A stretch of DNA of 29,809 nucleotides from an uncultured bacterium (GTDB lineage Bacteria; Chloroflexota; Chloroflexia; Thermomicrobiales; UBA6265). Each line of letters starts with the position of its first letter. Position 1 is the first letter of the stretch. The stretch lies in the NCBI GenBank assembly GCA_965651105.1, contig CBFGRG010000001.1:1-29809 (forward strand), written 5' to 3'. The position numbers and the translations under genes are program-made. Positions 13,018 to 28,477 of the stretch are shown in pieces. Below the pieces are notes generated by a model. The model had not been told where the DNA came from. It searched no databases and saw only the letters and a list, made by a program, of their open reading frames with translations.

Positions 13018-13887
13018 TCAGGCTCCAGTGCCCCAGCCGAGCCGCCGCCACGCTGATGCGGGCAGGATCTGGTCGACTCGCTCCAGCACCCAGTCGGGCC
13101 GGTCGGTCGGGGCGATCCCGGCCAGCATCGCCGGCGTCGTCTCGCCCGTCAGCACAAGCGCCGAAGGCATTCCCGCGTCGAGCGCCATGCGGATATCGGT
13201 CATCAGCCGGTCGCCGATCATCACACAGCGCTCCGCCGGCAGCTCCAGCCGCGCCAGCGCCGCCGCGAGCATGTACGGGTCGGGCTTGCCCGTATGCCGC
13301 CGCAGCGTCGTGCCGGTGCATCCCTCGACCGCGCCGATGATCGCCGCCGCGTCCGGCTCGCCCCGGCCACCGGGAAACGGGCAGAACCGGTCGGGATTGG
13401 TCGCCACCAGAAAGGCGCGACCCTCGGTGCGGATCGCGTCAAAGGCGATCTGCAGCTTCCGGTAGTCGAACCCCCGGTCGTAACTGGCGATCACGATGTC
13501 GATCTCGCGCGGATCTTCCGACATCCGGATCCCGGCAGCGGAGAGCGCATCCTTCAACGGCTGCTCGCTGATCGGGAACACCGTCGCCTCGGGGTGGTGC
13601 GCCAGCAGCCAGGCGGTCATCGTGTCGACCGTGTTCAGCACCTGCTCGGGCGTGGCAGCGATCCCGAACCGCGCCAGCTTGTGCACATACTCGGCGGGCG
13701 AGCTGGTCGGATTGTTGGAGAGGAACAGCACCTTCCGGTCGAGGGCGGCCAGCGCCTCGATCAGCCGCCTCGCGCCAGGCAGCGGGTCATCGCCGAGATA
13801 GATCGTGCCGTCGAGGTCAAAAACATACCCGTCCAGCAACTTGTCCGGACGGGCTGCTCCCGCGATGGATGTCGATTCCGACTGCAT
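13018..13887 (-). CDS. HAD-IIA family phosphatase (NagD/AraL-like)
   Basis: Motif I DLDGTIY; motif II SNN; TNPD; GKP; motif IV GDRLMTDI; LVLTG. Confidence 0.92.
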   Translation of the reverse strand: MQSESTSIAGAARPDKLLDGYVFDLDGTIYLGDDPLPGARRLIEALAALDRKVLFLSNNPTSSPAEYVHKLARFGIAATPEQVLNTVDTMTAWLLAHHPEATVFPISEQPLKDALSAAGIRMSEDPREIDIVIASYDRGFDYRKLQIAFDAIRTEGRAFLVATNPDRFCPFPGGRGEPDAAAIIGAVEGCTGTTLRRHTGKPDPYMLAAALARLELPAERCVMIGDRLMTDIRMALDAGMPSALVLTGETTPAMLAGIAPTDRPDWVLERVDQILPASAWRRLGWGTGA

Positions 13888-13995: not shown

Positions 13996-14009
13996 TGCAC
14001 ATCGGTGCA
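13996..14009. promoter_or_regulatory. palindromic operator 1 (TGCAC-ATCG-GTGCA), putative SorC-family site
   Basis: Perfect TGCAC-N4-GTGCA in the divergent HAD/AraM intergenic region; recurs at 18526, 19507 and 22105. Confidence 0.7.
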
Positions 14010-14116: not shown

Positions 14117-15490
14117 ATGACCTTGCGAAACGACCGGCCGCCTGTCCAGCGCGCGCTCGCCGGCGCCTCCACCACGCGCCAGATCGTGATGCGCGCCGGC
14201 GCGCTCGCCGAAACGGGGCGGCTCGCGCGGGAGATGTTCCCCGGTCGCACCGCGGTAATCGTCGCCGACGGAAACACGTTTCGGGTCGCCGGTGAGTGGG
14301 TCCAGGCATCGCTGCGCGATGCTGACGTGTCGATCGCCGAGCCGATCGTGTTCCCGGCCGAGCCGACGCTCCGGCCGGATGTGAGCAATGTCGCGACGAT
14401 CCTCACGCATCTCGGTCCGGACACCGTGCCCGTCGCCGTCGGCTCGGGCACGATCAACGACCTGACGAAGCGCGCCGCCCACGAGGCCGGTCTCCCCTAC
14501 CTGGTGGTGGCCACGGCCGCATCGATGGACGGCTACACCGCCTCCGGCGCGGCCCTGATCGCCGATGGGGTAAAGCAGACATTCCCGTGCGCGGCGCCCG
14601 AAGCGGTGATAGCCGACCTCGATGTGCTCGCGGCGGCGCCGGAGGGCATGACCGCGTCAGGCTACGGCGACCTGATCGGCAAGGTCACGGCCGGCGCCGA
14701 CTGGATCCTGGCCGACGCCCTCGGCATCGAGCCGATCCTGCCCGACGTGTGGGAGATGGTTCAGGGACCGCTGCCCGGCATGATCGCCGATCCCGAACGA
14801 TATTTCCGGGGCGAGCGGGACGAAATCGAGCAGCTCTTCGGCGGTCTGGTGATCACCGGGCTCGCGATCCAGGCCGCCGGCGTCACGCGCCCCGCCTCGG
14901 GCAGCGAGCACCAGTTCAGTCACCTCTGGGAGATGCGCGGGCTCGAGCACCAGGGCGAGCTGGTATCCCACGGCAAGAAGGTCGGCCTCGGCACGATCGT
15001 CTCGACCACGATCTACGAGCGCCTGCTGGCCACCCCGGTCGACCGGCTGGACATCGATCGCGCGGTCGCGGCATGGCCGAGCTGGCCCGAGATGGAGGCG
15101 ATCATCCGGCGCAGCCACGACCACCCCGCGCTGGTCGAGAAGGCACTGGAGGAGTGCCGCGCCAAGCACCTGACGCCGGACGCGCTCGGCGACCGACTGA
15201 CCCGGCTTCGGGACCAGTGGCCGGAGCTCGCGCCGAAACTGCGCGACCAGCTGCTGCCGGTCGGCCAGCTGCGAAGCCTGCTCAGGCAGGCACACTGCCC
15301 CACCCGCCCCGAGGACATCGGGCTCACCCTGACGCAGCTGCGCGAGAGCTACCTCACCGCTGGCCACATCCGCCGCCGGTACACCGTTTTCGACATCGTG
15401 CACGAGGCGGGCCTGCTCAACACGATCGTGGACGACATCTTCTCGCCCGGCGGTCCCTGGGAGACATCTGAAGGAGACGCGACGCCATGA
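14117..15490 (+). CDS. sn-glycerol-1-phosphate dehydrogenase family protein (AraM/EgsA-like, dehydroquinate-synthase-like fold)
   Basis: GSGTINDLTK; TAASMDGY; GYGDLIGK..ADW; SGSEHQFSH; HGKKVG metal-binding His motifs; RBS GGAG. Confidence 0.9.
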   Translation: MTLRNDRPPVQRALAGASTTRQIVMRAGALAETGRLAREMFPGRTAVIVADGNTFRVAGEWVQASLRDADVSIAEPIVFPAEPTLRPDVSNVATILTHLGPDTVPVAVGSGTINDLTKRAAHEAGLPYLVVATAASMDGYTASGAALIADGVKQTFPCAAPEAVIADLDVLAAAPEGMTASGYGDLIGKVTAGADWILADALGIEPILPDVWEMVQGPLPGMIADPERYFRGERDEIEQLFGGLVITGLAIQAAGVTRPASGSEHQFSHLWEMRGLEHQGELVSHGKKVGLGTIVSTTIYERLLATPVDRLDIDRAVAAWPSWPEMEAIIRRSHDHPALVEKALEECRAKHLTPDALGDRLTRLRDQWPELAPKLRDQLLPVGQLRSLLRQAHCPTRPEDIGLTLTQLRESYLTAGHIRRRYTVFDIVHEAGLLNTIVDDIFSPGGPWETSEGDATP

Positions 15491-15990
15491 ACACGGACCG
15501 ATTCGTCCTCGCGATCGGCGCCGACAACGCCGGGGCCGACCTGAAAAACACGATTCGTGACGCGCTCGCCGGCGACGATCGGGTTGAGATTGTGGATTAC
15601 GGCGTCGCCAGCGCCGACGATGACACCGCCTATCCACACATCGGGCTGAACGTCGCCCGGGCGATTGCAGAAGGACAGGCGCGCCGCGGCCTGCTGATCT
15701 GCGGCACGGGCATTGGCATGGCGATTTCGGCGAACAAGGTTCCCGGCGTCCGCGCCACCGTCGCGCACGACTCGTATTCGGTCGAGAGGTCGGTGCTCTC
15801 CAACAACTGCCAGGTGCTGACCCTCGGAGCCCGCGTGGTCGGCCCCGAGCTGGCGCAACGCCTGGTGCGGGAATGGCTGTCATATGAGTTCGACGAAGGT
15901 TCAGCCTCAGCCCAAAAGGTCGCCGTGATCAGCGATTACGAGATCGCGCACGGCGGTTCGCGCCACGCCGAGCGAGACCAGGGCTGCTGA
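15487..15990 (+). CDS. RpiB/LacA/LacB family sugar-phosphate isomerase, DerI/EryI (D-erythrulose-4-phosphate isomerase)-like
   Basis: ICGTGIGMAISANKVPGVRA core; GADNAG, AHDSYSVERSVLSNNCQVL and SASAQKV variants; ATGA overlap with the upstream gene. Confidence 0.88.
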   Translation: MNTDRFVLAIGADNAGADLKNTIRDALAGDDRVEIVDYGVASADDDTAYPHIGLNVARAIAEGQARRGLLICGTGIGMAISANKVPGVRATVAHDSYSVERSVLSNNCQVLTLGARVVGPELAQRLVREWLSYEFDEGSASAQKVAVISDYEIAHGGSRHAERDQGC

Positions 15991-16000
15991 CGGGCACGCA

Positions 16001-17536
16001 TCAGGCACGGCTGAGATCGCTCAGCGCTCGCTGCTGCTCCGTCGTCCGCTCGTACAGCTCGCGATAGATCGCATATCCGGCGTCGTAGACCGAGGCGCGG
16101 TCCGGGTTCGGATCGACCCGCCGCGCGATCCGCGTCCAGCCGCCGACAAGGCGCTCCTCCGAGTCAACGATGCCTGACGCCAGCCCGGCGAGCATCGCAT
16201 CGCCATAGGACGCCCCGAGCGTGCGCTCGGGGATCAGTTGCGACACGCCGGTGATGTCGCTGACGATCTGCACCCACACGTCGCCCTGCGTGCCGCCGCC
16301 GACCGCGATAATCGAGTCCGGCATGGCTCCGGCTTCAGCCATGATCTCGAGGTGGTGCCGCACGCCGTACCCGACCCCCTCCAGGATCGACCGGTAGAGG
16401 TGACCGCGCGTGTGACGCAGCGTGAGTCCGGCGAACATGCCGCGGGCATCGGGATTGTGCAGCGGGGTGCGCTCGCCGGCGAAATACGGTAGGCAGATCA
16501 CCCCCTCGCTGCCGGCCGGGACAGCGTCCGCGAGATCGCACAGTTGACCATAGGCGCTCTCGCCAGTCTCCGCTTCCTTCCTGCGCTCGTCACCGGCCAG
16601 CTCCTCCCGAAACCACTTCGTTATCAGGCCGGACGTCGCCATCCCGCCCATGATCGCGCGGCGCCCCGGCAGGCTGTACGCTGCCGGCCACAGGCGAGGA
16701 TCGGTCCTGTGCTCCGCAACGAGGTTCAGCAGAAAGAAGGTGCTGCCATACATCAGCATCATCTGACCCGGCTCGACCACCCCCACACTCAGCGACTCGG
16801 CGGCCACGTCGATTGTGCCCGGCGTAACGGGGATGCCCTCCGGCAAGCCCGTTTCGGCGCTGGCAGCGGCTGTGACGTACCCTGCAATCTCGTTGGTGTC
16901 CAGTAACCGTGGCAGCCGATCGAGCCCGATGATGTCCCCGGCGAAGCGATCATCCCACTCCAGCCGCTCGATATTGAAGAGTGGATTGAACGCCGACGCC
17001 GTGTGGCGGTCGATCACATGCTCGCCTGTGAGGCGATAGACGATGTAGTCGCTTGACGAATGCACCATCGCCGTGCGGGCGAACAGCTCCGGCTCGTGTC
17101 TGCGCAGCCACAGGATCTTGGGTCCCACCGCCTGAGTGCTGAGCGGCATCCCGCCCAACGCGAAGATCGCCTCGGCACCGTGGCGCTCCTCCAGCCAGGC
17201 GATCTCTGCCGTGGCGCGCGTGTCGATCCCATAGAGCACCGCCGGTCGCAGCGGATGGCCGTCGGCGTCGAGCGGCAACATGCAGGGTCCGATCGCGCTG
17301 ATTGCGACCGCCCCGACATCGGCACTCCGGTTGCTGTCCTTCAGCAGCCGCTGGCAAATCTCCACGAACTCGCCCCACCAGAGCCCGTCGGCGTCGTGCT
17401 CGGCCCAACCTGGTCTGGGAAAGCTGGTGTCATGGTGCACAACTGTCGAGGCGACGACGTCCCCTTCAGACGTACACAGCACGCCTTTCGAGCTGGACGT
17501 GCCGATATCGACGCCGAGCAGCAGTGTCCCAGCCAT
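16001..17536 (-). CDS. FGGY-family carbohydrate/polyol kinase (xylulokinase-like, substrate unknown)
   Basis: LGVDIGTSSSKG; PGWAEHD; IDTRA; GPKILWL; PYFAGERTP..DARG; AVGGG. Start ATG 17536 after GAGAGGA. Confidence 0.93.
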   Translation of the reverse strand: MAGTLLLGVDIGTSSSKGVLCTSEGDVVASTVVHHDTSFPRPGWAEHDADGLWWGEFVEICQRLLKDSNRSADVGAVAISAIGPCMLPLDADGHPLRPAVLYGIDTRATAEIAWLEERHGAEAIFALGGMPLSTQAVGPKILWLRRHEPELFARTAMVHSSSDYIVYRLTGEHVIDRHTASAFNPLFNIERLEWDDRFAGDIIGLDRLPRLLDTNEIAGYVTAAASAETGLPEGIPVTPGTIDVAAESLSVGVVEPGQMMLMYGSTFFLLNLVAEHRTDPRLWPAAYSLPGRRAIMGGMATSGLITKWFREELAGDERRKEAETGESAYGQLCDLADAVPAGSEGVICLPYFAGERTPLHNPDARGMFAGLTLRHTRGHLYRSILEGVGYGVRHHLEIMAEAGAMPDSIIAVGGGTQGDVWVQIVSDITGVSQLIPERTLGASYGDAMLAGLASGIVDSEERLVGGWTRIARRVDPNPDRASVYDAGYAIYRELYERTTEQQRALSDLSRA

Positions 17537-17677
17537 GGCAGCGGCTTCCTCTCTCAACGAATCGATGCGATCTATCCGGTTCCGAACACGCCTCCGGCAA
17601 TGCGTCGGCTGCAGACATGCCGCCCGACTGGGCCGTCCCCGGGAGCGGCACGACGAGGCGTGGACGCAGCGGCTGGA

Positions 17678-18412
17678 TCAGTTGCCATCCAGATGCGCGA
17701 GCAACGCGGTCGGATAATCTGAAGTCACTGAATCCATGCCTCGCCCAATCGCGCTTTCGAGGTCATCGACGGTGTCGCACGGGCCGCCGCCAACGGTGAG
17801 CCCGTGCTCGTGGGCGCGCGCCACAAGCTCGGCAGCGGTCTCCCGATATCGATGCAGGTTGACTTGCGTACAGCCGAGTCGCCGCGCCGTGCCGATCGAA
17901 TCAGGATCGTCAGGCCGGGCGATGAATGCGGTCGCCAACGTTGGAGCGAGCCGCCGGACCGCCTCGACTGCCCCCACCTCGAACGAGGTGACGAGCGATT
18001 GTCGCTCTATGCCGCGCGCGCGAATCTCGTCGACGATCCCTTTGGCGATCCGTTCAATCCGCTCAGGCGTGTCCTTCTTGATCTCGAACTGGAGGACCTC
18101 GAACGTCGCGAGCACGTCAAGCGCCTCGGCCAGTGTCGGCACGCCCACCGGCTCCGACCAGGACGGGCAGGTGCCACGTGCGTCGAGTGCGGCAAGCTCC
18201 GCGGCGGAAAAGCTCTCGACCGCGCCGGTCGCGTTGGTGGTTCGATCGACCGTCGCGTCATGGATGACGACCAGCACATCGTCGCGGGAGATCCGGACAT
18301 CGAACTCGACCCGCCCCAACCCGAGCTGCCGGGCGTACTCGAAACCTGCGATCGTGTTCTCCGGCGACTCACCCATGGCGCCACGATGGCCAATGATCTG
18401 GATGCGCTTCAC
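17678..18412 (-). CDS. cytoplasmic glycerophosphodiester phosphodiesterase (GDPD, UgpQ-like) 1
   Basis: GTG 18412 after GGAGG; IGHRGA..PENT; EFDV; IHDATVDRTT; EIK; no signal peptide. Confidence 0.92.
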   Translation of the reverse strand: MKRIQIIGHRGAMGESPENTIAGFEYARQLGLGRVEFDVRISRDDVLVVIHDATVDRTTNATGAVESFSAAELAALDARGTCPSWSEPVGVPTLAEALDVLATFEVLQFEIKKDTPERIERIAKGIVDEIRARGIERQSLVTSFEVGAVEAVRRLAPTLATAFIARPDDPDSIGTARRLGCTQVNLHRYRETAAELVARAHEHGLTVGGGPCDTVDDLESAIGRGMDSVTSDYPTALLAHLDGN

Positions 18413-18525
18413 CCGTACCTCCCGCCTGTGAATCGGCGCCCCGGTCACGCTCCCGGACACCATCTGGATCGTGTCGATCGGTGCCAGCATACCCGCAGAG
18501 ACGGCATGTTCTTGCACGATTTGCA

Positions 18526-18539
18526 TGCACATCCGTGCA
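18526..18539. promoter_or_regulatory. palindromic operator 2 (TGCAC-ATCC-GTGCA)
   Basis: Perfect motif 114 nt upstream of the corrected GDPD1 start. Confidence 0.7.
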
Positions 18540-19506: not shown

Positions 19507-19520
19507 CGCACGGATGTGCA
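19507..19520. promoter_or_regulatory. palindromic operator 3 (CGCAC-GGAT-GTGCA; minus strand TGCACATCCGTGCG)
   Basis: One mismatch to operator 2; lies between divergent GDPD2 and the SorC-family regulator. Confidence 0.65.
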
Positions 19521-19571
19521 TGGGGCATGACCGACAAGACGTGGCGAGAACGTCGCCGGGAGATACCTGTC

Positions 19572-20561
19572 ATGAGCGATCAACCGATCGAGGTGGAGCG
19601 GACCGAAGGACACTCGGCGTCGGTAGCGACGAACGCCGAGATCATCACCTCCGTGGCGCGACTCTACTATCTCGAACGGCTGGGGCAGGCAGAGATCGCG
19701 TCGATCTACGGCGTGTCTCGATCGACAATCTCGCGAATGTTGACGGCGGCACGGGAGCTCGGCATCGTGCGCATCACGGTGGACGACTACGATCCGCGGG
19801 ATCGCGAGGCAGAGCGGCAGCTGACCAGCCAGTTCGGGCTGCGGCATGCGGTCGTGGTGCGGTCGGTCGAAGGCTCGGATGTCGCCACCCGGCGGGCCGT
19901 CGGGTACTTCGGCGCGCCGGAAGTCGAGGGCTGGATCGAGTCGAGCCACATCGTCGGCGTCGCCGGCGGTCGTTCGATCGGGGAGCTGCTGCGCGCGATC
20001 GGCCACAGAAGCCAGCCACAGGACCTCAAGGTTGTGCAGCTGATGGGCATGATCGGCTCCAGCCCGAGCAGTGTCGACGCGTCCGAGCTGAGCCGAATCC
20101 TCGCCAGCCGGTTTCACGGCGAGTTCCACAACATCAGCGCGCCGGCCTTCGTGAAGGACAAGCGCACGCGGGACCTCTTTCTCTCCCACTCCCAAATCCA
20201 GTCCGTCTGGAGTCGGTTCGAAGCGCTCGACCTCGCGTTTATCGGCATCGGCACCCTCGAGGACTCGGTTTTTGTCGAACGCAAGGTGCTCGATGATTCC
20301 GAGCTGGCGAAAGCAAGGCGCTCAGGCGCGGTCGGCGAGATTTGCGGACGCTTCTTCGACCAATCCGGGCAGGAGTGCGACTCGCCGTTCCGGAACCGCG
20401 TCGTCAGCATCGAGCTCGACGCACTTCGGAAAGGGAAAGAGGTGGTTGGTGTGACCACCGGCGCCTCGCGCGGCGAAGCTGTCCGCGCGGCGCTTCGCGG
20501 CGGACTTGTGCACTCACTGGTGATGGACGACACCTGCGCGCGGAGCGTGCTCGACGGGTGA
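19572..20561 (+). CDS. SorC/DeoR(Bsu)-family sugar-phosphate-binding transcriptional regulator
   Basis: ARLYYLERLGQAEIASIYGVSRSTISRMLTAARELGIVRI HTH; GVAGGRSI; GIG; GAVGEICGRFFD sugar-binding domain. Start ATG 19572 (GGAG, 9 nt) preferred over 19527. Confidence 0.93.
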   Translation: MSDQPIEVERTEGHSASVATNAEIITSVARLYYLERLGQAEIASIYGVSRSTISRMLTAARELGIVRITVDDYDPRDREAERQLTSQFGLRHAVVVRSVEGSDVATRRAVGYFGAPEVEGWIESSHIVGVAGGRSIGELLRAIGHRSQPQDLKVVQLMGMIGSSPSSVDASELSRILASRFHGEFHNISAPAFVKDKRTRDLFLSHSQIQSVWSRFEALDLAFIGIGTLEDSVFVERKVLDDSELAKARRSGAVGEICGRFFDQSGQECDSPFRNRVVSIELDALRKGKEVVGVTTGASRGEAVRAALRGGLVHSLVMDDTCARSVLDG

Positions 20562-20587: not shown

Positions 20588-21952
20588 CTACATCAGCACC
20601 TCTTCCGGCAGGACCCGGGCGAAGGGGGCCGTGCGCGGTGAGGCGTCATGGATGGCCGATGGAGCCGGCTCCCCGGCCTCGACCATGCGACTCACCAGCC
20701 GCTGCTTCAGGTGGTCGGCCACAGCACGGTGCGATTCGAGCCCGACCAGGTTGTTCAGCTCGTAGGGATCCACCTCCAGATCGTAAAGATACGTTTCCGT
20801 GTACTCGTCCGCGCCCGGAGCCGAACGCCCGTTGAGCCCCAGTGCGGTGACGGAGTATTTCCAGCGGGGCGTGCGGATGGCACGACCAATTTCGCTCTCG
20901 CTGATCTGGATAAAGACTTCGTTGCGCCACTCGCTCCGAGCACGCTGGCCGTCGCGAACGAGCGGCACGATCGATCGGCCCTGCATCGCCTCGGGCACGT
21001 CAATCCCGGCCGCATCGAGCAGCGTGGGCGGAAGGTCGATGAGACTGACCAGCTCGGCCACCTCGCCGCCACCGAAGAAACCGGGGCCGGTCAGCACGGT
21101 CGGCACCCGGACCGATGCATCCTGGCAGGATCGCTTGTACTCCCGCTCGTTTCCGCGCGTCTTGAAGTGGCAGCCGTGATCCGATGTGAAGAGGATGATC
21201 GTGTTGTCCCGCAGCCCGAGGCTCTTGAGGGCATCGAGCAGCCGGCCGTAGGCTTCATCCAGCCGTTTGATCATGCCCCAGTACCCGGCGATCTGCCGGT
21301 GCGCCGATCCGCCGAGCGCGGCCAGATCCGGTGGCAGCCAGCGCCCCTGGTAGCGCTCGCGGTAGCCATCCGGCGCCGGGTAGTCATCGGTGCGATTTTG
21401 GTGGTGCGGTTCCAGGTAGGAGCAGAAGAGGAAGAATGGCTCGTCGCGGTGGTCACTGACGAAGCGGATCGCCGCGTCGGTTTGGGCATCGACCCTGTAC
21501 CCGGGCAGGGTGACCTCCCGTTCCGCTTCGTCGTAGACCGTGAACCAGTATGGCTCGGAAGTATGTTCGAGGGTGTTCGCGGCAAGCCAGGTCGCATAGC
21601 CGCCTCGCTCCTCCGCGGACACCGGGTCGCCACTCGCGAGGTGCCATTTGCCGATGTAGCCCGTATGGTACCCGGCGTCGGCGAAATAATTGGCGAGCGT
21701 CGGCATGTCGCTCGGTAGCGCCATGGCGTCGTTTTTCCAGACACCGGTGCGGGTGGCGTAGAGACCCGTCTGCAGCGACGACCTGGCAGGACCACACACG
21801 GGCTGACAGGTGATCGACGTGTTCACATGCGTGCCCTGTCGTGCAATTCGGTCCAGATTCGGTGTCAACTCAAGCGGGTTGCCGTGCAGGCCGGTCGAGT
21901 CCCACCGCTGCTGATCCGTCAGGAACACAATCACGTTTGGTCGTTCGCTCAT
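20588..21952 (-). CDS. formylglycine-dependent sulfatase family hydrolase 1 (cytoplasmic)
   Basis: PNVIVFLTDQQR; CGPARSSLQTG (CxPxR); GKWH; PH; TSDHG. Start ATG 21952. Confidence 0.92.
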   Translation of the reverse strand: MSERPNVIVFLTDQQRWDSTGLHGNPLELTPNLDRIARQGTHVNTSITCQPVCGPARSSLQTGLYATRTGVWKNDAMALPSDMPTLANYFADAGYHTGYIGKWHLASGDPVSAEERGGYATWLAANTLEHTSEPYWFTVYDEAEREVTLPGYRVDAQTDAAIRFVSDHRDEPFFLFCSYLEPHHQNRTDDYPAPDGYRERYQGRWLPPDLAALGGSAHRQIAGYWGMIKRLDEAYGRLLDALKSLGLRDNTIILFTSDHGCHFKTRGNEREYKRSCQDASVRVPTVLTGPGFFGGGEVAELVSLIDLPPTLLDAAGIDVPEAMQGRSIVPLVRDGQRARSEWRNEVFIQISESEIGRAIRTPRWKYSVTALGLNGRSAPGADEYTETYLYDLEVDPYELNNLVGLESHRAVADHLKQRLVSRMVEAGEPAPSAIHDASPRTAPFARVLPEEVLM

Positions 21953-22104
21953 TCCTTCAAGACTCCTCTCCTGTGCGATCGTCGCTGACCTCCGGCCAAT
22001 GCATCCTGCCGGAATCGCACACCGTCGCCTGAGCCGACGCTGCTGGCCCATCAGGATGTACGGTCATCAAGTCACAGCGTGGCACAGAATGGCACGCTTG
22101 TAGC

Positions 22105-22118
22105 TGCACATGTGTGCA
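22105..22118. promoter_or_regulatory. palindromic operator 4 (TGCAC-ATGT-GTGCA)
   Basis: Perfect motif in the divergent sulfatase/sulfatase region, which also holds extra TGCAC half-sites at 22115, 22166, 22175 and 22189. Confidence 0.7.
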
Positions 22119-22133
22119 CACCCCTCTTTCTGT

Positions 22134-22163
22134 TTGACGCTGTCCGATGCGTGCTGCTAGCGT
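22134..22163 (+). promoter_or_regulatory. sigma70-type promoter for the sulfatase2-ABC-phoD unit
   Basis: TTGACG-N18-TAGCGT, same spacing as the promoter at 14026. Confidence 0.55.
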
Positions 22164-22272
22164 GGTGCACACGTTGCACGAACGGATTTGCACGCGCATC
22201 GCTCCGCGAGCCGCACACAGCGATCGACGGCATCCTCGAGCGGGCATTGCAGCAGACGAGGCAGCAGCCACC

Positions 22273-23724
22273 TTGACCACCACGTGGAGACCCAACATCG
22301 TCGTCTTGATGGCCGACGACCACCGGGGCACGGAGATGAGTCACCTGCCTCACGGGCAGGCCCGGACGCCGGTGCTCGATGCCCTCGCAGCACGTGGCGT
22401 CTCGTTCGACGGCGCTCACTGCCAGGGATCGATGATCCGGGCCGTTTGCGTGCCGAGCCGCGCCAGCCTCATGACCGGACGGAATATCTTCGCGTCGTCC
22501 AGCGACCCGACCGGCGGCGACTTCCAATGCGCCATCACCATTCCGCCCGACCTCGAAACCTTCCCCGAAGCGCTCCGCCGCGCCGGGTATCGCACCCACG
22601 CCGTGGGCAAGTGGCACAACGACACCGCGTCATTCCAGCGCTCCTTCTCCAGCGGCGACGCGATCATGTTCCTGGGCATGAGCGATCACCATGAGGTACC
22701 GACGTGGACCTATGATCCTGACGGCGAATACGCAGGCGCGAACGCCTGGAACTTCGATGAGCCACATACGGAAGAGGACACGGCCGGGAGCTATGTGTAC
22801 CGCGAAGGCTTTTCCAGCGACATCTTCGCGGACGCCGCGATCGACTTCCTCGGTCAGGACCACGGCGACGATCCGTTCCTGATGTACGTCGCCTTCACCG
22901 CCCCCCACGACCCGCGCACGCCCCCGCCGGGATGGGAGGTCGACCCTCAATCGATCGAGTTGCCGCCCAACTTCCTGCCCGAACATCCCTTCGACAACGG
23001 AGAGATGGAGGTGCGGGACGAGCTGCTGGCGGAATTCCCGCGCTCCGAAGCGGAAATCCGGCAGCACATCGCCGACTACTACGGCATGATTGCCCACCTC
23101 GATCACACGATTGGTCGCATCGTCGGCGCGATCGAGGAGCACGGCCTGGCTGACGACACCGTGATCATCTACACCGGCGACCACGGGTTGGCGGTGGGCC
23201 AGCACGGCCTGATGGGCAAGCAGAACCTTTACGAGCACAGCCTCCGCGTCCCGCTGGTGATAGCCGGTCCCGGCGTTCCGGCCACCGGTGTCGTCCACGG
23301 ACTTTCATGGCACGCGGATACCACGGCGACGATCTATGCGCTCGCGGGCTTGCCGCCCAACCCATCGGCGGAAGGCACCTCACTGATCGACAGCAACGGA
23401 GTCATTGCCGCACCTCGGCGGACACTTGGGGCCGCCTACGAGTACAGCCAGCGATCGTTTCGGGACCATCGGCACAAGCTCATCCGCTACTGGAAGGTCC
23501 GGGACACTGTCCCGAATCCAGGCACCACGCCGGGAACCGACATGGTCCAGCTCTATGACCTCGAGCGCGACCCGTGGGAGATGGACAACCTCGCGGACGA
23601 CCCGAGTTACGCGGAGACCCTCGAGCGCCTCAATCACGGGCTCCAACAGTGGCAGCGAGATGTCGACGATGTCCAGCTCGCTTTCCACCCAGGGATCGGT
23701 GACGCGACAGGAGCATGTTCATGA
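22273..23724 (+). CDS. formylglycine-dependent sulfatase family hydrolase 2 (cytoplasmic)
   Basis: Probable TTG start at 22273 (GAGG upstream); PNIVVLMADDHR; CVPSRASLMTG; GKWH; APHDP; TGDHG; GKQNLYE. Confidence 0.92.
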   Translation: MTTTWRPNIVVLMADDHRGTEMSHLPHGQARTPVLDALAARGVSFDGAHCQGSMIRAVCVPSRASLMTGRNIFASSSDPTGGDFQCAITIPPDLETFPEALRRAGYRTHAVGKWHNDTASFQRSFSSGDAIMFLGMSDHHEVPTWTYDPDGEYAGANAWNFDEPHTEEDTAGSYVYREGFSSDIFADAAIDFLGQDHGDDPFLMYVAFTAPHDPRTPPPGWEVDPQSIELPPNFLPEHPFDNGEMEVRDELLAEFPRSEAEIRQHIADYYGMIAHLDHTIGRIVGAIEEHGLADDTVIIYTGDHGLAVGQHGLMGKQNLYEHSLRVPLVIAGPGVPATGVVHGLSWHADTTATIYALAGLPPNPSAEGTSLIDSNGVIAAPRRTLGAAYEYSQRSFRDHRHKLIRYWKVRDTVPNPGTTPGTDMVQLYDLERDPWEMDNLADDPSYAETLERLNHGLQQWQRDVDDVQLAFHPGIGDATGACS

Positions 23725-23873: not shown

Positions 23874-25184
23874 ATGACCAGGATGAATCGACGACGTTTC
23901 ACAAGTAGCGCGGTGGCGGCTGGCGCGGCGGCGGCCGTTGGTGGCGCGGCGAGCGCGTCGTCCCCGAAGCGGAGTGCCGCCCCGGCGGTGATACGGGCGC
24001 AGAACGCCCCCGTCGAGATCGTCTTCTCCAACATCTGGGGAACGCCGCCGGGTGGTGACGCCCCGGAAAACAAGCACCCGGTCGACCTGGTGATCGAGGC
24101 GTTCAACGAGCAGAGCACCGACGTCAAGGTCACGGGCCGCGTCGACGGCGGGTACTACGAGGGGCTCCAAAAGCTCCAGGCCGAGCTTGCGGCGGGATCT
24201 CCACCCGCCCTGTGCATCACCCCGTGGAACAGCATCAACTGGGCCGATGCAGGGCTCGGCATCATCAACCTTGAAGACATCGCCGGTGACGAGGTTGCCG
24301 AAGTCTTCGGGAACCTCAAGGATCAGGTGATCCCGTTGGTGCAGATCGATGGGAAGACCAAGGGCGTGCCGTACGCGTTTTCGACCCCGGTTGTCTATTA
24401 CAACAACGATATCCTCGCCGACGCGGGTGTCGCGGCCGAGGATCTGTTCCAGAGCTGGGCTTCGTACAGTGAGGAAGGTCTCAAGGTCCAGGCGGCGACC
24501 GACGGCAATCCGATCTTCGGGTTCCTTGGCGATAGCCAATGGACAGCCCAGAGCCTCATCCAGTGCAATGGCGGCTTTGTGCTGAACGAAAATGGCGAGC
24601 CTGTGATGGACAGCCCGGAGGCCATTGCGGCAATGCAGGCGGTTGCCGACATGGATAGCCAGGGGCTGTATGACAGGTCGACGGCGAGTGAGGTGCGTGC
24701 ATCGTTCACCGCTGGCTCCACTGCGTCGTGGATCGGCAGCATCGCCTCGCTCGGTGGGCTCAAGAACACGGTCACCTACGACCTTCAGACGTCGACATTC
24801 CCGGTGTTCGACGACAAGCCGCGCATGATGTCGAGTGGTGGATCGTTCATCGGGGTCTACGCGCGCGAGGAAGAGCAACAGCAGGCGGCCTGGGAGTTCC
24901 TCAAGTTCGCGTTGTCGGAAGAGGGGTACTCGATCTGGATGCAGACGGGCTATCTCAACGCGACCAAGTACGACCTTCCCATCATCGAGGGCCAGGAAGC
25001 GGCGTACACCCAGCTCGAAGAGGGTCTGACCCGCGAGACGCCGTGGCCGACTGCGCGCGGCGGCGAGCTGCTGGCGATCTGGCAGAACTACGTGTCCCGT
25101 ATCTGGGCAAATGACATCAGTGCCGAGGAAGGGTGCCAGCAAGCGGTCGAGGAGATCAACGCGGTTATCGAATCAGCTGGCTGA
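23874..25184 (+). CDS. ABC transporter substrate-binding protein (family 1, UgpB-like), Tat signal
   Basis: MNRRRF Tat motif; PYAFSTPVVYYN; SGGS; TGYL; RBS CAGGAG. Confidence 0.88.
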   Translation: MTRMNRRRFTSSAVAAGAAAAVGGAASASSPKRSAAPAVIRAQNAPVEIVFSNIWGTPPGGDAPENKHPVDLVIEAFNEQSTDVKVTGRVDGGYYEGLQKLQAELAAGSPPALCITPWNSINWADAGLGIINLEDIAGDEVAEVFGNLKDQVIPLVQIDGKTKGVPYAFSTPVVYYNNDILADAGVAAEDLFQSWASYSEEGLKVQAATDGNPIFGFLGDSQWTAQSLIQCNGGFVLNENGEPVMDSPEAIAAMQAVADMDSQGLYDRSTASEVRASFTAGSTASWIGSIASLGGLKNTVTYDLQTSTFPVFDDKPRMMSSGGSFIGVYAREEEQQQAAWEFLKFALSEEGYSIWMQTGYLNATKYDLPIIEGQEAAYTQLEEGLTRETPWPTARGGELLAIWQNYVSRIWANDISAEEGCQQAVEEINAVIESAG

Positions 25185-25217
25185 TCACTCGCGCCAGGAA
25201 ACGAAAGGACTGCAGAC

Positions 25218-26507
25218 ATGTCTGGCATCACCCGACGAACCCTCATTGGCCGCGCGGGAGCAGCCGGCGCGGCACTCGCGGGAGGCGCATCGCTTGCCGG
25301 CCTCTCGCCCGCGGTCATGGCAGCGCAGGACGTGACCGAGATCACGTTCTACAACATCTGGGGAACGCCGCCGGGCGGCGAAACCTCGGACACCAAGCAT
25401 CCGGTCGATCAGGTCATCGACGCATTCAATGAGCAAAGCACCGACATCAAGGTGACCGGGGAAACGCCGGGGAACTACTTCGAAACGCTCCAGAAGGCGC
25501 AGGCGCAGATCGCCGCCGGCGATGCGCCCGCGCTGATCACGACGCCATGGGCGAACATCAACTACGCCTACGAAGGGCTCGGGATCATTCCGCTCGAGGA
25601 CATCGCCGGCGACGAGGTGGCAGAAGCGTTCAGCGCCTTCCAGGAGCAGGTCATACCGCTGGTCCAGGTCGATGGCAACACCGTGGGCATGCCCTACGCA
25701 TTCTCCTGCCCGGTCATCTACTACAACGCGGATGTCTTCGAAGAGGCCGGCGTGGATCCGGACGAGATGTTCGCGACGTGGGCCAGCGTGCTGGAACAGG
25801 GACCGGCCATTCAGGAAGTGCTGGACGGCAATCCGATCATTGGCGAGATCACCAATCCCGACTGGCCCGCCCAGAGCATCATCCAAAGCAACGGAGGAAC
25901 GGTGCTCGATGACGACGGCGTGCCGGTGATGGACAGTCCGGAAGCCATCGAAGCGCTCCAGGCGATCGCCGATCTCGACAACGCGGGCCTGTATGACCGG
26001 TCCACCACTGCTGAGCGACGCGCGTCGTTCCTCGGCGGATCGACGGCCTGCATCATCGGGAGCATCGCGTCGCTGGGGGGCCTGCAAAACAACGCAACGT
26101 TCAACCTGCAGACCCACACCTTCCCGACCTTCGGCGACAAGCCGCGCAGGATGGCAAGCGGCGGCTCCTTCATTGGGATCTACGCCCGCGAGGAAGAGCA
26201 GCAGCAGGCGGCATGGGAATACCTCAAGTTCGCCATGTCCGAGGAGGGCTACGGTATCTGGATGCAGACGGGATACCTCAACCCCACCACCTACGACCTG
26301 CCTCGCCTCGAAGGCCAGGAGGCGGCCTACACCCAGCTCGATGAAGGCCTCACGCCCGAGACGCCGTGGCCGACCGCGCGCGGCGGCGAGCTCCAGGCGA
26401 TCTGGGGCGATTTCGTCGCCCGGATCTGGGCAAACGACATGAGTGCCGAAGACGGCTGCGCACAAGCGGTCGAGGAGCTCACGGCCATGATCGAACAGGC
26501 GAGTTAA
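25218..26507 (+). CDS. ABC transporter substrate-binding protein (family 1, UgpB-like), Tat signal, paralog of 23874..25184
   Basis: ITRRTL Tat motif; GNYFE; PYAFSCPVIYYN; SGGS; TGYL; RBS GAAAGGA. Confidence 0.88.
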   Translation: MSGITRRTLIGRAGAAGAALAGGASLAGLSPAVMAAQDVTEITFYNIWGTPPGGETSDTKHPVDQVIDAFNEQSTDIKVTGETPGNYFETLQKAQAQIAAGDAPALITTPWANINYAYEGLGIIPLEDIAGDEVAEAFSAFQEQVIPLVQVDGNTVGMPYAFSCPVIYYNADVFEEAGVDPDEMFATWASVLEQGPAIQEVLDGNPIIGEITNPDWPAQSIIQSNGGTVLDDDGVPVMDSPEAIEALQAIADLDNAGLYDRSTTAERRASFLGGSTACIIGSIASLGGLQNNATFNLQTHTFPTFGDKPRRMASGGSFIGIYAREEEQQQAAWEYLKFAMSEEGYGIWMQTGYLNPTTYDLPRLEGQEAAYTQLDEGLTPETPWPTARGGELQAIWGDFVARIWANDMSAEDGCAQAVEELTAMIEQAS

Positions 26508-26535
26508 GCCGCCTCGAACGGACCGAAAACCGTCT

Positions 26536-26582
26536 CACGGCCCACCACTCGTTCGCCTCGGCTGAACTGGTGGTGGGTCGTG
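26536..26582 (+). other. intercistronic stem-loop after the SBP genes
   Basis: CACGGCCCACCACTCGTTCG pairs with ...GAACTGGTGGTGGGTCGTG (about 19 of 20 pairs, counting G-U); no U-tract. Confidence 0.55.
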
Positions 26583-26627
26583 CGAGGGGCACAGCAATCA
26601 CTTCACACCACGGGGCAAGGAAGCTGG

Positions 26628-27581
26628 ATGGCGAGCATTCGCGTCACAACCCAGGGCGACACGTCGCCGAGCGACGTCAAGCGCCAGCGGTTCACCTGGT
26701 ACAGGATCAGGGAGGGCGCGACGCCCTATCTGCTCATCGCACCATTGCTGATCCTGGTGGCGATTTTCATTTACTGGCCACTGTTGTATTCGACGTATCT
26801 CTCGTTCTTTGACTGGAACTTCGTTCGCCCCGACAAGGACTTCGTCGGTTGGGACAACTACACCCAGCTGTGGGGTGATCCGCGCTTCATGCGCGCACTC
26901 AACGGAACGTGGATCTATTTCGTCACGCTGATTCCGATCCAGGTCTTTCTTCCACTCGGGCTGGCCATGCTCCTTTGGCCGATCCGACGTGCCCCCGGAC
27001 AGCACGCCTACCGCGTCGTCCTCTTTTCCCCAACGGTGGTCGCGTGGTCGGTGGGCGCGGTGATGTGGCTGTGGATCTTCAATCCGCTGCAGGGCCTGCT
27101 CAACAAGGTGCTCGCCGAGTTCGGTGTGGAGCGCATCAACTGGCTTTCGGATCGTGACACCGCGATCTGGACCGTGATCGTGGTGGCGACGTGGAAGACG
27201 CTGGGCTTCAACCTGCTGCTCTACCTGGCCGCGCTCGAGGCGGTGCCGCACGACTATGTCGAGGCGGCGTCACTGGATGGCGCCAGCAAGTGGCAGATCA
27301 TGAAAACCATCCGCTTCCCGCTCATCACACCGACATTCTTCTTCGTGCTCGTCACCACCGTGATCTCGGTGAACGACGACGTCTTCGGCGCGATCAACGT
27401 GCTCACGGAGGGAGGTCCATTCGAATCCACCACCAACATCGTCTATTACCTCTATGAGCAGGGATTCAGGTACTTCCAGATCGGTGACGCGAGTGCTGTT
27501 TCCATCATCATCTTCATCGCCACGGTCTTCCTGACCTGGCTGCAATTCCGCTTCATCGAAGGACGCGTGCATTATGGCTAG
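26628..27581 (+). CDS. carbohydrate ABC transporter permease (UgpA/MalF-like)
   Basis: ATG 26628 after AAGGA; FVGWDNY; GLLN..WLSD; EAA motif YVEAASLDGAS; YYLYEQGF. Confidence 0.93.
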   Translation: MASIRVTTQGDTSPSDVKRQRFTWYRIREGATPYLLIAPLLILVAIFIYWPLLYSTYLSFFDWNFVRPDKDFVGWDNYTQLWGDPRFMRALNGTWIYFVTLIPIQVFLPLGLAMLLWPIRRAPGQHAYRVVLFSPTVVAWSVGAVMWLWIFNPLQGLLNKVLAEFGVERINWLSDRDTAIWTVIVVATWKTLGFNLLLYLAALEAVPHDYVEAASLDGASKWQIMKTIRFPLITPTFFFVLVTTVISVNDDVFGAINVLTEGGPFESTTNIVYYLYEQGFRYFQIGDASAVSIIIFIATVFLTWLQFRFIEGRVHYG

Positions 27582-28446
27582 CATGGTGACCGCACCCAGG
27601 TCCCGAGCCGCGCAACGGGGAGACCGCGCGAGCAATTTCGTCGTGCACGTGGTCATCATCACGATCTGCGTGCTGACCATCTTCCCATTCTTCTGGATGT
27701 TCTCCACCTCCTTCAAGCAGGCGAACGAGGTCTTTACCAAAGACATCCAGCTGATCCCCCTGAACCCGACGTTGAGGAACTATCCGGATGCCTTCAGCTA
27801 CTTCCCGGTCGCGAACTGGTTCTGGAACAGCTTCGCCATCTCTGTGTTGACGACAGTGGGCAAGCTGGCGATCAGCATACCCGCGGCGTTCGCCTTCTCT
27901 CGGCTGCGATTCCCCGGTCGATCATTCTTTTTCGCCGTGGTCCTTGCGACGATGATTGTGCCCGGCGTGACGCACATCGTTCCGAATTATGTGCTCGTCT
28001 CGAATCTGGGGTGGCTCAACTCCTGGGCGGGTGTCGTGATCCCGTCCCTGCCAGCCACGGCCTTCTACATGTTCCTCATTCGTCAAAGCGTGATGACCCT
28101 GCCGCAGGAGCTGATCGACGCCGGCCGCCTCGATGGCGCCTCGACCCTCCAGCTGCTCTGGCAGATCGTCATCCCGAACATCCGGCCCGCCATCGCTGTC
28201 GTCAGCATCCTGTCATTCCTCGGGGCGTGGAACCAGTACCTGTGGCCGCTGCTGGTGTTGAACGATTTCGAATCGAAGACACTGGCCGTGGGCATGCAGT
28301 TCTTCACGTCGAACACCGAGTCGGCCCAGCTCTGGGGACCGATGATGGCGACCGCCGCGATCGCGACCATCCCGCCGCTGCTCATCTTCGCCCTTGCCCA
28401 AAAACAGATCATCTCCACGTTCGTCACCTCGGGCATCAAGGGCTAG
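27574..28446 (+). CDS. carbohydrate ABC transporter permease (UgpE/MalG-like)
   Basis: 8-nt overlap with the upstream gene; PFFWMFSTSFK; AFAFSRLRFPGR; ELIDAGRLDGA; WNQYLWPL; SGIKG C-terminus. Confidence 0.93.
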   Translation: MASMVTAPRSRAAQRGDRASNFVVHVVIITICVLTIFPFFWMFSTSFKQANEVFTKDIQLIPLNPTLRNYPDAFSYFPVANWFWNSFAISVLTTVGKLAISIPAAFAFSRLRFPGRSFFFAVVLATMIVPGVTHIVPNYVLVSNLGWLNSWAGVVIPSLPATAFYMFLIRQSVMTLPQELIDAGRLDGASTLQLLWQIVIPNIRPAIAVVSILSFLGAWNQYLWPLLVLNDFESKTLAVGMQFFTSNTESAQLWGPMMATAAIATIPPLLIFALAQKQIISTFVTSGIKG

Positions 28447-28477
28447 AGCCCACGGTGACGCCAGAAAGAGGCCCATT

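Follow-up and report, generated by a model that had tools for sequence, protein, structure and literature searches.

The question raised by the stretch of DNA described here, a 29,809-nucleotide contig of an uncultured Thermomicrobiales bacterium of the phylum Chloroflexota (GenBank assembly GCA_965651105.1, contig CBFGRG010000001.1; the whole stretch is referred to below as the window), is which reaction is catalyzed by the small RpiB-family protein that it encodes. Databases name the homologues of this protein (hereafter the isomerase) ribose-5-phosphate isomerase, and a look-up of the isomerase in a protein atlas returned nothing beyond generic RpiB names. A first-pass annotation of the window had noted variant motifs in the protein and had likened it to the D-erythrulose-4-phosphate isomerases of four-carbon polyol (tetritol) catabolism, viz. 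EryI and DerI. Our analyses indicate that the isomerase is rather likely to be an enzyme of this type, which would interconvert D-erythrulose-4-phosphate and D-erythrose-4-phosphate and in this way supply the pentose phosphate pathway with a four-carbon unit; its assignment to the EryI/DerI kind, made from alignments, motifs and phylogeny, is well supported.

The LacAB_rpiB domain (PF02502) spans the full length of the isomerase (E 8.7e-47, 159 bits vs a cut-off of 24.7), and its membership of the RpiB/LacA/LacB superfamily is also indicated by the model TIGR00689 (125.4 bits vs a cut-off of 88.3). The start codon of the gene is sound, with a Shine-Dalgarno-like GAAGGAGA located about 10 nucleotides 5' of the ATG, and this ATG shares the tetranucleotide ATGA with the TGA of the upstream gene, which encodes a dehydrogenase related to AraM; because of this stop/start overlap, the two genes are translationally coupled. 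In a MAFFT alignment of the isomerase with E. coli RpiB, a Bacillus RpiB and more than 100 relatives, the motifs GADNAG (residues 11–16), LSNNCQVL (104–111) and SASAQKV (139–145) align with GCDHVG, QHNDTNVL and G-RHQQRV of the E. coli protein, and the variant motifs noted in the first pass are therefore real features of the translated gene.

The predicted active site consists of D13, N14, C72, T74, R101, S105, N106, R116, S141 and K144. The catalytic Cys72 is retained together with Asp13, Thr74 and Asn106, residues that are kept in both the His-less and the canonical groups of the family and that correspond to Cys66, Asp9, Thr68 and Asn100 of E. coli RpiB (AlsB), a protein of the same fold with 42% identity. 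In contrast, the equivalents of its His10, His99, Arg133, His134 and Arg137, i.e. both canonical histidines and the Arg/His/Arg phosphate clamp, have been replaced, and Ser105, Ser141 and Lys144 are found in the isomerase along with an extra arginine, Arg101. One of the histidines of canonical RpiBs serves to open the furanose ring of the sugar, and a four-carbon substrate needs no ring opening.

The distribution of these replacements was examined in a maximum-likelihood tree of 108 rows, drawn from 80 named genome loci retrieved by similarity, a number of annotated anchors (viz. an Arthrobacter plasmid, a Rhizobium apionate-type locus, a Klebsiella plasmid, the Sinorhizobium meliloti erythritol locus, and rpiB of E. 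coli K-12) and relatives from the same order; because rows were chosen by their similarity to the isomerase or, for 17 of them, by linkage to an AraM-like gene, the clade counts given here describe this sample and not the whole family. The smallest clade that contains both the isomerase and S. meliloti EryI comprises 87 rows (SH-aLRT 99), all of them His-less, and the 21 rows outside it, one of which comes from an unpublished genome (row L008, genome G030; loci and genomes of our set are numbered L and G, respectively), are without exception canonical RpiBs. The grouping with EryI/DerI-type isomerases that had been proposed for the isomerase is thus borne out by the tree, in which no clustering with the canonical RpiBs was seen. 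The two groups are cleanly split by their motifs, which read G.D[DENS]AG, [LK]SN[ND][AC]Q and S.S..KV or G-.S..KV in the His-less rows, and G.DH.G, xHN[DN].N and G-RHxxR in the canonical ones. In the numbering of the isomerase, which has N/R/S/Q/S/K at positions 14/101/105/109/141/144, position 14 is never His in the His-less clade (His in 21/21 canonical rows), position 101 is Arg in 87/87 (Met, Ala, Gln or Leu in canonical RpiBs), position 105 is Ser in 87/87 (His in 21/21), position 109 is mostly Gln (Asn in 21/21), position 141 is Ser in 86/87 (His), and position 144 is Lys in 80/87 (Arg); five truncated rows of the canonical set have gaps at the last two positions.

The EryI proteins of Brucella, Sinorhizobium and Rhizobium share with the isomerase the fold family, the clade, the loss of both histidines, and the residues Arg101, Ser105, Asn106 and Cys72; the identity to S. 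meliloti EryI is 46%. The latter protein was recognized as EryI because its gene follows a DeoR regulator and a TIM (triosephosphate isomerase) paralogue in the erythritol locus, for which an eryR-tpiB-rpiB suboperon has been described (PMC3599248). The claim of the first-pass annotation that all three motifs of the isomerase match the EryI type holds for the first two, for which the Sinorhizobium protein has GADSAG and KSNNAQ, but not for the third, since the versions of this phosphate motif in the rhizobial proteins and in the PDB entry 5ifz are GPSAANV and GRSAGNV. The SASAQKV form is instead the actinobacterial, Chloroflexota and fungal version, present in the Arthrobacter plasmid protein and in the "RpiB" of Coccidioides immitis (PDB 3qd5).

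Among the solved structures, this Coccidioides protein is also the closest relative of the isomerase (3qd5/3sdw, E 1.4e-48). It is followed, with 117 bits, by 5ifz, which bears no other title than "ribose 5-phosphate isomerase", reads GDSAG and LSNNAQ, and is taken by us to be the Brucella RpiB/EryI, by E. coli RpiB (about 100 bits), and by M. tuberculosis RpiB (2vvo/1usl/2bes) with just 51 bits. The Coccidioides protein (3qd5, 3sdw, 3sgw) has LSN[ND]xQVL and SASAQKV in common with the isomerase, with conserved surroundings of the phosphate and the cysteine. Its bound phosphate is contacted only by Lys148, Ser109 and Ser145, with Arg105 behind them, Ser109 takes the place of the ring-opening histidine, and ribose-5-phosphate could not be modelled into the site; the authors, who had doubts about ribose-5-phosphate as the substrate, suspected one of shorter chain length (PMC3212906). 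By pairwise alignment, Cys76, Gly81, Arg105, Ser109, Asn110, Arg120, Ser145 and Lys148 of this protein correspond to C72, G77, R101, S105, N106, R116, S141 and K144 of the isomerase, and the replacement of Asp17 by Asn14 is the sole change among the active-site residues named for the Coccidioides enzyme (PMC3212906). The comparison with this fungal protein is one of residues.

The gene neighborhoods of the clade members provide further information. Of the 87 genes of the clade, 51 lie within 4 kb of a Dak-family kinase gene and/or a TIM paralogue, 20 of an AraM-like gene, and 6 of a transketolase or transaldolase gene, and 20 of the 21 canonical rpiB genes have none of these nearby. Most of the actinobacterial relatives (55–63% identity) have the Dak gene directly upstream on the same strand. 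The order on the Arthrobacter plasmid is zinc-dependent alcohol dehydrogenase (Zn-ADH), ABC transporter, Dak, isomerase, TIM-family protein, DeoR regulator and alcohol dehydrogenase; the Klebsiella plasmid carries a SorC-type regulator, TIM and Dak facing isomerase, tal and tkt; and the Rhizobium locus consists of oiaX, a four-carbon-acid kinase, TIM and the isomerase. The pathways of these loci end in erythrulose phosphates and erythrose-4-phosphate (PMC10733421, PMC12994016, PMC5992420). The succession of Dak, RpiB-like and TIM genes in most actinobacterial relatives and in two Thermomicrobiales orthologues is like that of M. smegmatis, whose RpiB-family D-erythrulose-4-phosphate isomerases DerI1 and DerI2 act after a Dak-family erythrulose kinase (a comparison by description, as given in PMC10733421 and PMC12994016). 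Orthologues with the same motifs and 73–76% identity in the Thermomicrobiales genomes G017 and G018 and on contig L023 directly follow a fused Dak1-Dak2 kinase gene, and the unchanged active site of Dak-linked and AraM-linked orthologues argues that the same reaction is catalyzed whichever partner supplies the substrate. The RpiB-like YALI0F01628g of Yarrowia lipolytica, which is required for growth on erythritol (PMC5992420), would lend genetic support to this role of the family; this eukaryotic gene, likened to the isomerase by description only, forms a cluster with genes for an erythrulose kinase of the Dak type and a TIM-like protein. The SorC-type regulator and the FGGY kinase, which the first-pass annotation had noted as members of the Brucella pathway, were likewise found to recur beside clade members. 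The single canonical row with neighbors of the above kinds derives from a Pelosinus metagenome-assembled genome (MAG; row L099); the protein has the motifs GSDHAG, AHNNSN and KHAQR, and both a transketolase gene and a distantly related AraM-like gene (30% identity) are located less than 3 kb from its gene.

The source genome is itself a MAG, which is 83% complete. The isomerase gene is its only PF02502 gene, a gene for RpiA is present on another contig (C94), a single TIM without a paralogue is encoded, and no Dak1 domain was found in the assembled 83%. PF02502 genes are present in 12 of 31 relatives, being of the DerI type in eight (G000, G002, G003, G005, G006, G011, G017 and G018) and canonical in four (G016, G022, G026 and G030), and the DerI-type gene is thus an accessory gene in the Thermomicrobiales relatives.

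What might supply the isomerase with its substrate is suggested by the genes that surround it (Table 1). The partners of EryI, viz. EryA, EryB, EryC and the TIM-like EryH, are all absent from the window, in agreement with the first-pass annotation as regards EryB, EryC and EryH, and the window also differs from the M. smegmatis tetritol pathways, as these are set out in PMC10733421 and PMC12994016, in that a Dak kinase, LerI and an SDR/MDR-type polyol dehydrogenase are all missing. The AraM-like protein, for which the top PDB match is a glycerol-1-phosphate dehydrogenase (9h4x, E 6.5e-47), obtains 156.6 bits with the model NF002022, under its cut-off of 413. The FGGY kinase remains under every equivalog cut-off (TIGR01312 XylB, 309 vs 380; top PDB match 3ifr). 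We have not retained the kinase as an orthologue of EryA, since XylB, below its cut-off, is the best model and the FGGY proteins beside other clade members are just 24–34% identical. The importer and PhoD genes at the end of the window belong to the same conserved cluster as the isomerase gene.

Table 1. Coordinates, strands and identifying evidence of the features in the window.
Feature	Position	Strand	Evidence or remark
AraL/NagD-like HAD-IIA phosphatase, transcribed divergently from the AraM-like gene	13018–13887	-	Pfam Hydrolase_6, Hydrolase_like; TIGR01460 121 vs 100
Palindrome TGCACATCGGTGCA (TGCAC-N4-GTGCA), HAD/AraM-like divergent promoter	13996–14009	.	
AraM-like Fe-ADH_2 dehydrogenase, glycerol-1-phosphate dehydrogenase family, 457 amino acids	14117–15490	+	PF13685
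RpiB/LacAB-family isomerase, His-less EryI/DerI type, 167 amino acids	15487–15990	+	translation, Pfam, alignment, tree
FGGY kinase, xylulokinase-like, convergent with the isomerase gene, downstream of phosphodiesterase 1	16001–17557	-	Pfam FGGY_N, FGGY_C
Cytoplasmic UgpQ-like glycerophosphodiester phosphodiesterase (GDPD) 1	17678–18532	-	PF03009; NF006989 below cut-off
UgpQ-like GDPD 2	18666 to about 19409	-	start placed close to where the GDPD domain begins
SorC/DeoR(Bacillus)-type sugar-binding regulator	19527–20561	+	PF04198
Sulfatase 1	20588–22051	-	
Sulfatase 2	22147–23724	+	
Two UgpB-like solute-binding proteins, two ABC permeases, PhoD-like phosphodiesterase (truncated at the end of the window)	23874–29809	+	

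A shared operator appears to connect these genes. In addition to the palindrome listed in Table 1, copies are located at 18526–18539 and 22105–22118 and a copy with one mismatch at 19507–19520, in all in four divergent or intergenic promoter regions; six matches with at most one mismatch were found vs 1.24 expected, and 0 of 100 shuffles reached six. The copy at 18526–18539 overlaps the first ATG (18532) of the longest open reading frame (ORF) of GDPD 1, the true start of which is probably downstream of the operator, because the GDPD domain begins only at residue 49. The two sulfatases were considered as pathway members and rejected, since their insertion is confined to this lineage and the clusters of G003 and G005 run straight from the SorC gene to the solute-binding proteins. 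The two divergent sulfatase genes are thus absent at this place from these two genomes of the same genus, yet they have a copy of the shared palindrome (22105) between them in the window.

The order HAD, AraM-like, isomerase, FGGY, two GDPDs, SorC, two solute-binding proteins and permeases is conserved in G003 and G005 and, with rearrangements, in G006 and G342, and the adjacency of the AraM-like and isomerase genes is kept in all four. Coupled AraM-like and isomerase genes were identified in five Thermomicrobiales genomes and, in a survey of 80 metagenome contigs for which the AraM-like protein had served as the query, in about 15 metagenome loci. Nine of the contigs (L124–126, L129, L132, L133, L143, L149 and L167) show the order isomerase, HAD-IIA, FGGY, AraM-like, FGGY, without GDPDs, and five (L113, L115, L127, L134 and L186) have the AraM-like gene followed by the isomerase gene. 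The pair on L115 stands beside GDPDs and an importer, with no FGGY or HAD gene within 8 kb. Transketolase and transaldolase genes, confirmed as such, directly follow the isomerase gene at L186:8255–11533; ORFs of matching size (693 and 366 amino acids, known by size only) occupy the same positions at L134:1920–5209 and are followed by a HAD gene and a gene for a PGI-like protein. PGI-like proteins are encoded on L127 and L134, and Zn-ADHs on L155 and L186. No TIM paralogue was seen in the AraM-linked loci examined. Several of these loci also encode GpsA-like (NAD) and GlpD/EryB-like (FAD) homologues of glycerol-3-phosphate dehydrogenase (L149:9665–12468, L134:11222–14238, L155:3846–4904, L127:7569–8630 and L167:13307–14380), and their co-occurrence with enzymes of the glycerol-1-phosphate dehydrogenase (G1PDH) family may indicate that a polyol phosphate is processed in both of its enantiomeric forms. 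In L109 (G011, an unpublished genome) and L111 (G329), an operon for a solute-binding protein, two permeases and PhoD ends with the AraM-like gene, which gives the AraM-like dehydrogenase a tie of its own to the phosphodiester system.

Three isomerases of metagenomic AraM-linked modules (L167:4278–4754, L149:49–525 and L155:121–612) read FGGTGLG, in which the catalytic Cys is replaced by Gly, and keep the Ser/Asn/Ser/Lys pocket. The same Cys is missing from M. tuberculosis RpiB (Rv2465c type), a distant relative at the 51 bits given above, which uses Glu as its base; Cys72 is kept in the isomerase of the window, and another residue may act as the base in the three metagenomic proteins.

In our main reading, the Dak kinase and the TIM-like LerI/EryH would have been replaced by other enzymes in this lineage, the AraM-like dehydrogenase would make the ketose phosphate, and the FGGY kinase and HAD-IIA phosphatase would interconvert the free and phosphorylated polyol. 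In the Thermomicrobiales, the module would be attached to a SorC-controlled system of PhoD, Ugp-like importer and two cytoplasmic GDPDs that scavenges polyol-phosphate diesters. Going further, we tentatively propose, with the balance of probability somewhat against the proposal in its entirety, an undescribed short route in which the AraM-like, DerI-type, FGGY and HAD-IIA proteins would lead from a tetritol or its phosphate via erythrulose-4-phosphate to erythrose-4-phosphate without Dak, EryB/EryC or TIM-like enzymes. A D-configured polyol phosphate would be oxidized by an enzyme of the G1PDH family, and in the Thermomicrobiales the route would draw on polyol-phosphate diesters, e.g. teichoic-acid-like fragments, which would be imported and then hydrolyzed in the cytoplasm. 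The route would give the widespread bacterial AraL/AraM-type gene pair its first catabolic role, and our literature search found neither an FGGY erythrulose kinase nor a G1PDH-family dehydrogenase acting on tetritol phosphates. The hand-off from the AraM-like to the RpiB-like enzyme is plausible from comparative context, and the phosphodiester origin fits the Thermomicrobiales regulon and is not general to the module. Like the first-pass annotation, we infer a tetritol derivative as the substrate, with a tetritol phosphodiester as its possible source and the AraM-like protein as the candidate oxidant.

The oxidation could take place in two ways. In the first, the AraM-like enzyme would act on tetritol-4-phosphate, either released by the GDPDs or made from the free polyol by the FGGY kinase; this variant is favored by the polyol-phosphate substrate of the G1PDH family, by the translational coupling and by the kinase-less locus L115. 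The D-series sugar phosphates share the sn-glycerol-1-phosphate configuration at the carbon beside the phosphate ester, and a G1PDH-family enzyme would therefore be a natural equivalent of the GlpD-like EryB, whose substrate is the L-form. In the second, the AraM-like enzyme would oxidize the free tetritol, as the glycerol dehydrogenases of its superfamily do with their polyol, and the xylulokinase-like FGGY enzyme would phosphorylate D-erythrulose at C4, so that no LerI would be needed; this variant would mirror the D-threitol route of M. smegmatis with non-orthologous enzymes. The HAD-IIA phosphatase might, speculatively, serve to exchange the phosphorylated end of the polyol by dephosphorylation and rephosphorylation, or to remove a toxic intermediate.

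Several observations weigh against the DerI-type function and the route built upon it. The isomerase exceeds the cut-off of the model TIGR02133 "RPI_actino" for actinobacterial ribose-5-phosphate isomerases (181.1 vs 168.2 bits) and falls under that of NF051858, the equivalog model for D-erythrulose-4-phosphate isomerase (159.9 vs 240 bits). No enzyme assay was found for any member of the 43-row actinobacterial/Chloroflexota subclade to which the isomerase belongs. The window has no Dak kinase, TIM paralogue, EryB or EryC, which makes the source of erythrulose-4-phosphate hypothetical. The AraM-like gene occurs in the regulon without a nearby isomerase gene in L114 (which also has no FGGY gene), in G329, whose contig breaks off within the AraM-like gene, and in G011, which has neither isomerase nor FGGY genes near its AraM-like gene and carries the isomerase gene on another contig. 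Genes of pentose or pentitol type are present in related modules (a true AraB ribulokinase on L124, and a class II aldolase together with an MFS transporter of the RbtT/DalT type on L167). Lastly, it can be reasoned that the strict regiochemistry of G1PDH applied to tetritol-4-phosphate would yield erythrulose-1-phosphate, which would require the missing LerI-type step.

The scores of the annotation models can be judged from proteins of known context. The rhizobial anchors L103 and L105 pass NF051858, itself a rhizobial model (257 and 253 bits), and the model is failed by the Dak/TIM-linked proteins of Arthrobacter (143.5 bits) and Klebsiella (179.3 bits). The Arthrobacter plasmid protein (L102:7998–8468, NZ_CP084551.1), encoded with a Dak-family kinase on one side and a TIM paralogue on the other and named ribose-5-phosphate isomerase in RefSeq, obtains 204 bits with TIGR02133. 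NF051858 is thus lineage-restricted, and DerI-type proteins are captured by TIGR02133. The canonical model TIGR01120 gives 123.3 bits to the isomerase, under its cut-off of 138.65. On these comparisons neither NF051858 nor TIGR02133 decides the function of the isomerase, and we have dropped the TIGR02133 pass as proof of ribose-5-phosphate specificity, given the higher score of the Dak/TIM-linked Arthrobacter protein. The DerI-type proteins of Actinomycetota and Chloroflexota are probably systematically misnamed.

The alternative that the isomerase nevertheless acts on ribose-5-phosphate, in that the AraM-like enzyme would make ribulose-5-phosphate from ribitol-5-phosphate (e.g. from fragments of ribitol teichoic acid that PhoD and the GDPDs would release), draws on the TIGR02133 score and the database names, on the pentulose-kinase-like FGGY proteins, AraB and RbtT/DalT-type polyol transporter of related modules, and on a possible DerI activity that canonical RpiB is said to have (PMC10733421), so that specificities within the family can overlap. 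We regard it as unlikely: the histidines at positions 14 and 105 and the Arg/His/Arg clamp of canonical RpiBs are gone, the resemblance to M. tuberculosis RpiB is slight, the 204 bits that TIGR02133 gives to a Dak/TIM-linked protein mean that a pass of this model is no proof of ribose-5-phosphate specificity, the clade is tied to four-carbon modules and not to pentose operons, and the authors of the Coccidioides structure were unable to model ribose-5-phosphate and suspected a shorter substrate (PMC3212906). A housekeeping ribose-5-phosphate isomerase is rejected, since the genome already has RpiA and the gene is patchily distributed among the relatives, where only four of the 12 carriers have the canonical type.

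It is also improbable that the isomerase is a broader tetrulose-phosphate isomerase that converts L-erythrulose-1-phosphate (D-3-tetrulose-4-phosphate) to D-erythrulose-4-phosphate and this to D-erythrose-4-phosphate, replacing LerI/EryH, with the AraM-like enzyme oxidizing, like G1PDH, the carbon beside the phosphate ester. Such an activity would answer the stereochemical argument that G1PDH regiochemistry on a D-configured tetritol-4-phosphate leads to erythrulose-1-phosphate, both steps would be 1,2-proton shifts through an enediol, and the AraM-linked loci examined are without the TIM paralogue that Dak-linked loci often possess, as is the source genome with its single TIM. However, we found no precedent for an RpiB-fold enzyme that performs a ketose-ketose step, the active-site residues are identical in the Dak/TIM-linked and AraM-linked orthologues from the same order, and the housekeeping TIM or an unrecognized protein could supply the step.

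The AraM of B. subtilis reportedly works physiologically as a reductase, from dihydroxyacetone phosphate to glycerol-1-phosphate. A biosynthetic direction for the module, from erythrose-4-phosphate via erythrulose-4-phosphate and, with NAD(P)H, tetritol-4-phosphate to a free tetritol (e.g. a compatible solute) that FGGY would re-use, would agree with this, with the conserved phosphatase and with the synthesis of erythritol via erythritol-4-phosphate and a phosphatase in lactic acid bacteria (PMC12542623), but is very improbable, as the module has its operator in common with the genes for the importer, PhoD and the GDPDs, controlled by a regulator of the SorC type, and the polyol importers, several kinases, transketolase and transaldolase of related modules are a catabolic signature.

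Since the EryI/DerI kind of enzyme is already known, the call of the DerI-type function mainly corrects an annotation, and the gain lies in the context, viz. a set of AraM-like, HAD-IIA, FGGY and DerI-type proteins in Thermomicrobiales and many soil metagenome contigs without the other known enzymes of tetritol pathways. If this new entry into the pentose phosphate pathway is real, it would be a fourth route for four-carbon polyols beside the Brucella, Mycobacterium and apionate/threonate-type routes, and it would suggest a role of bacterial AraM/AraL homologues outside lipid synthesis. The link to PhoD, the GDPDs and the Ugp-like importer points to the recovery of carbon, and not only of phosphate, from polyol-phosphate polymers in compost.

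A minor observation concerns the record from which the S. meliloti anchor L105 was taken (CP090106.1, 3.7 Mb), which is labelled "plasmid pSymB" in PLSDB and carries eryA, eryB, eryC and eryR-tpiB-rpiB. In S. meliloti, the erythritol locus presumably lies on the chromosome, and the replicon label of this record looks wrong.

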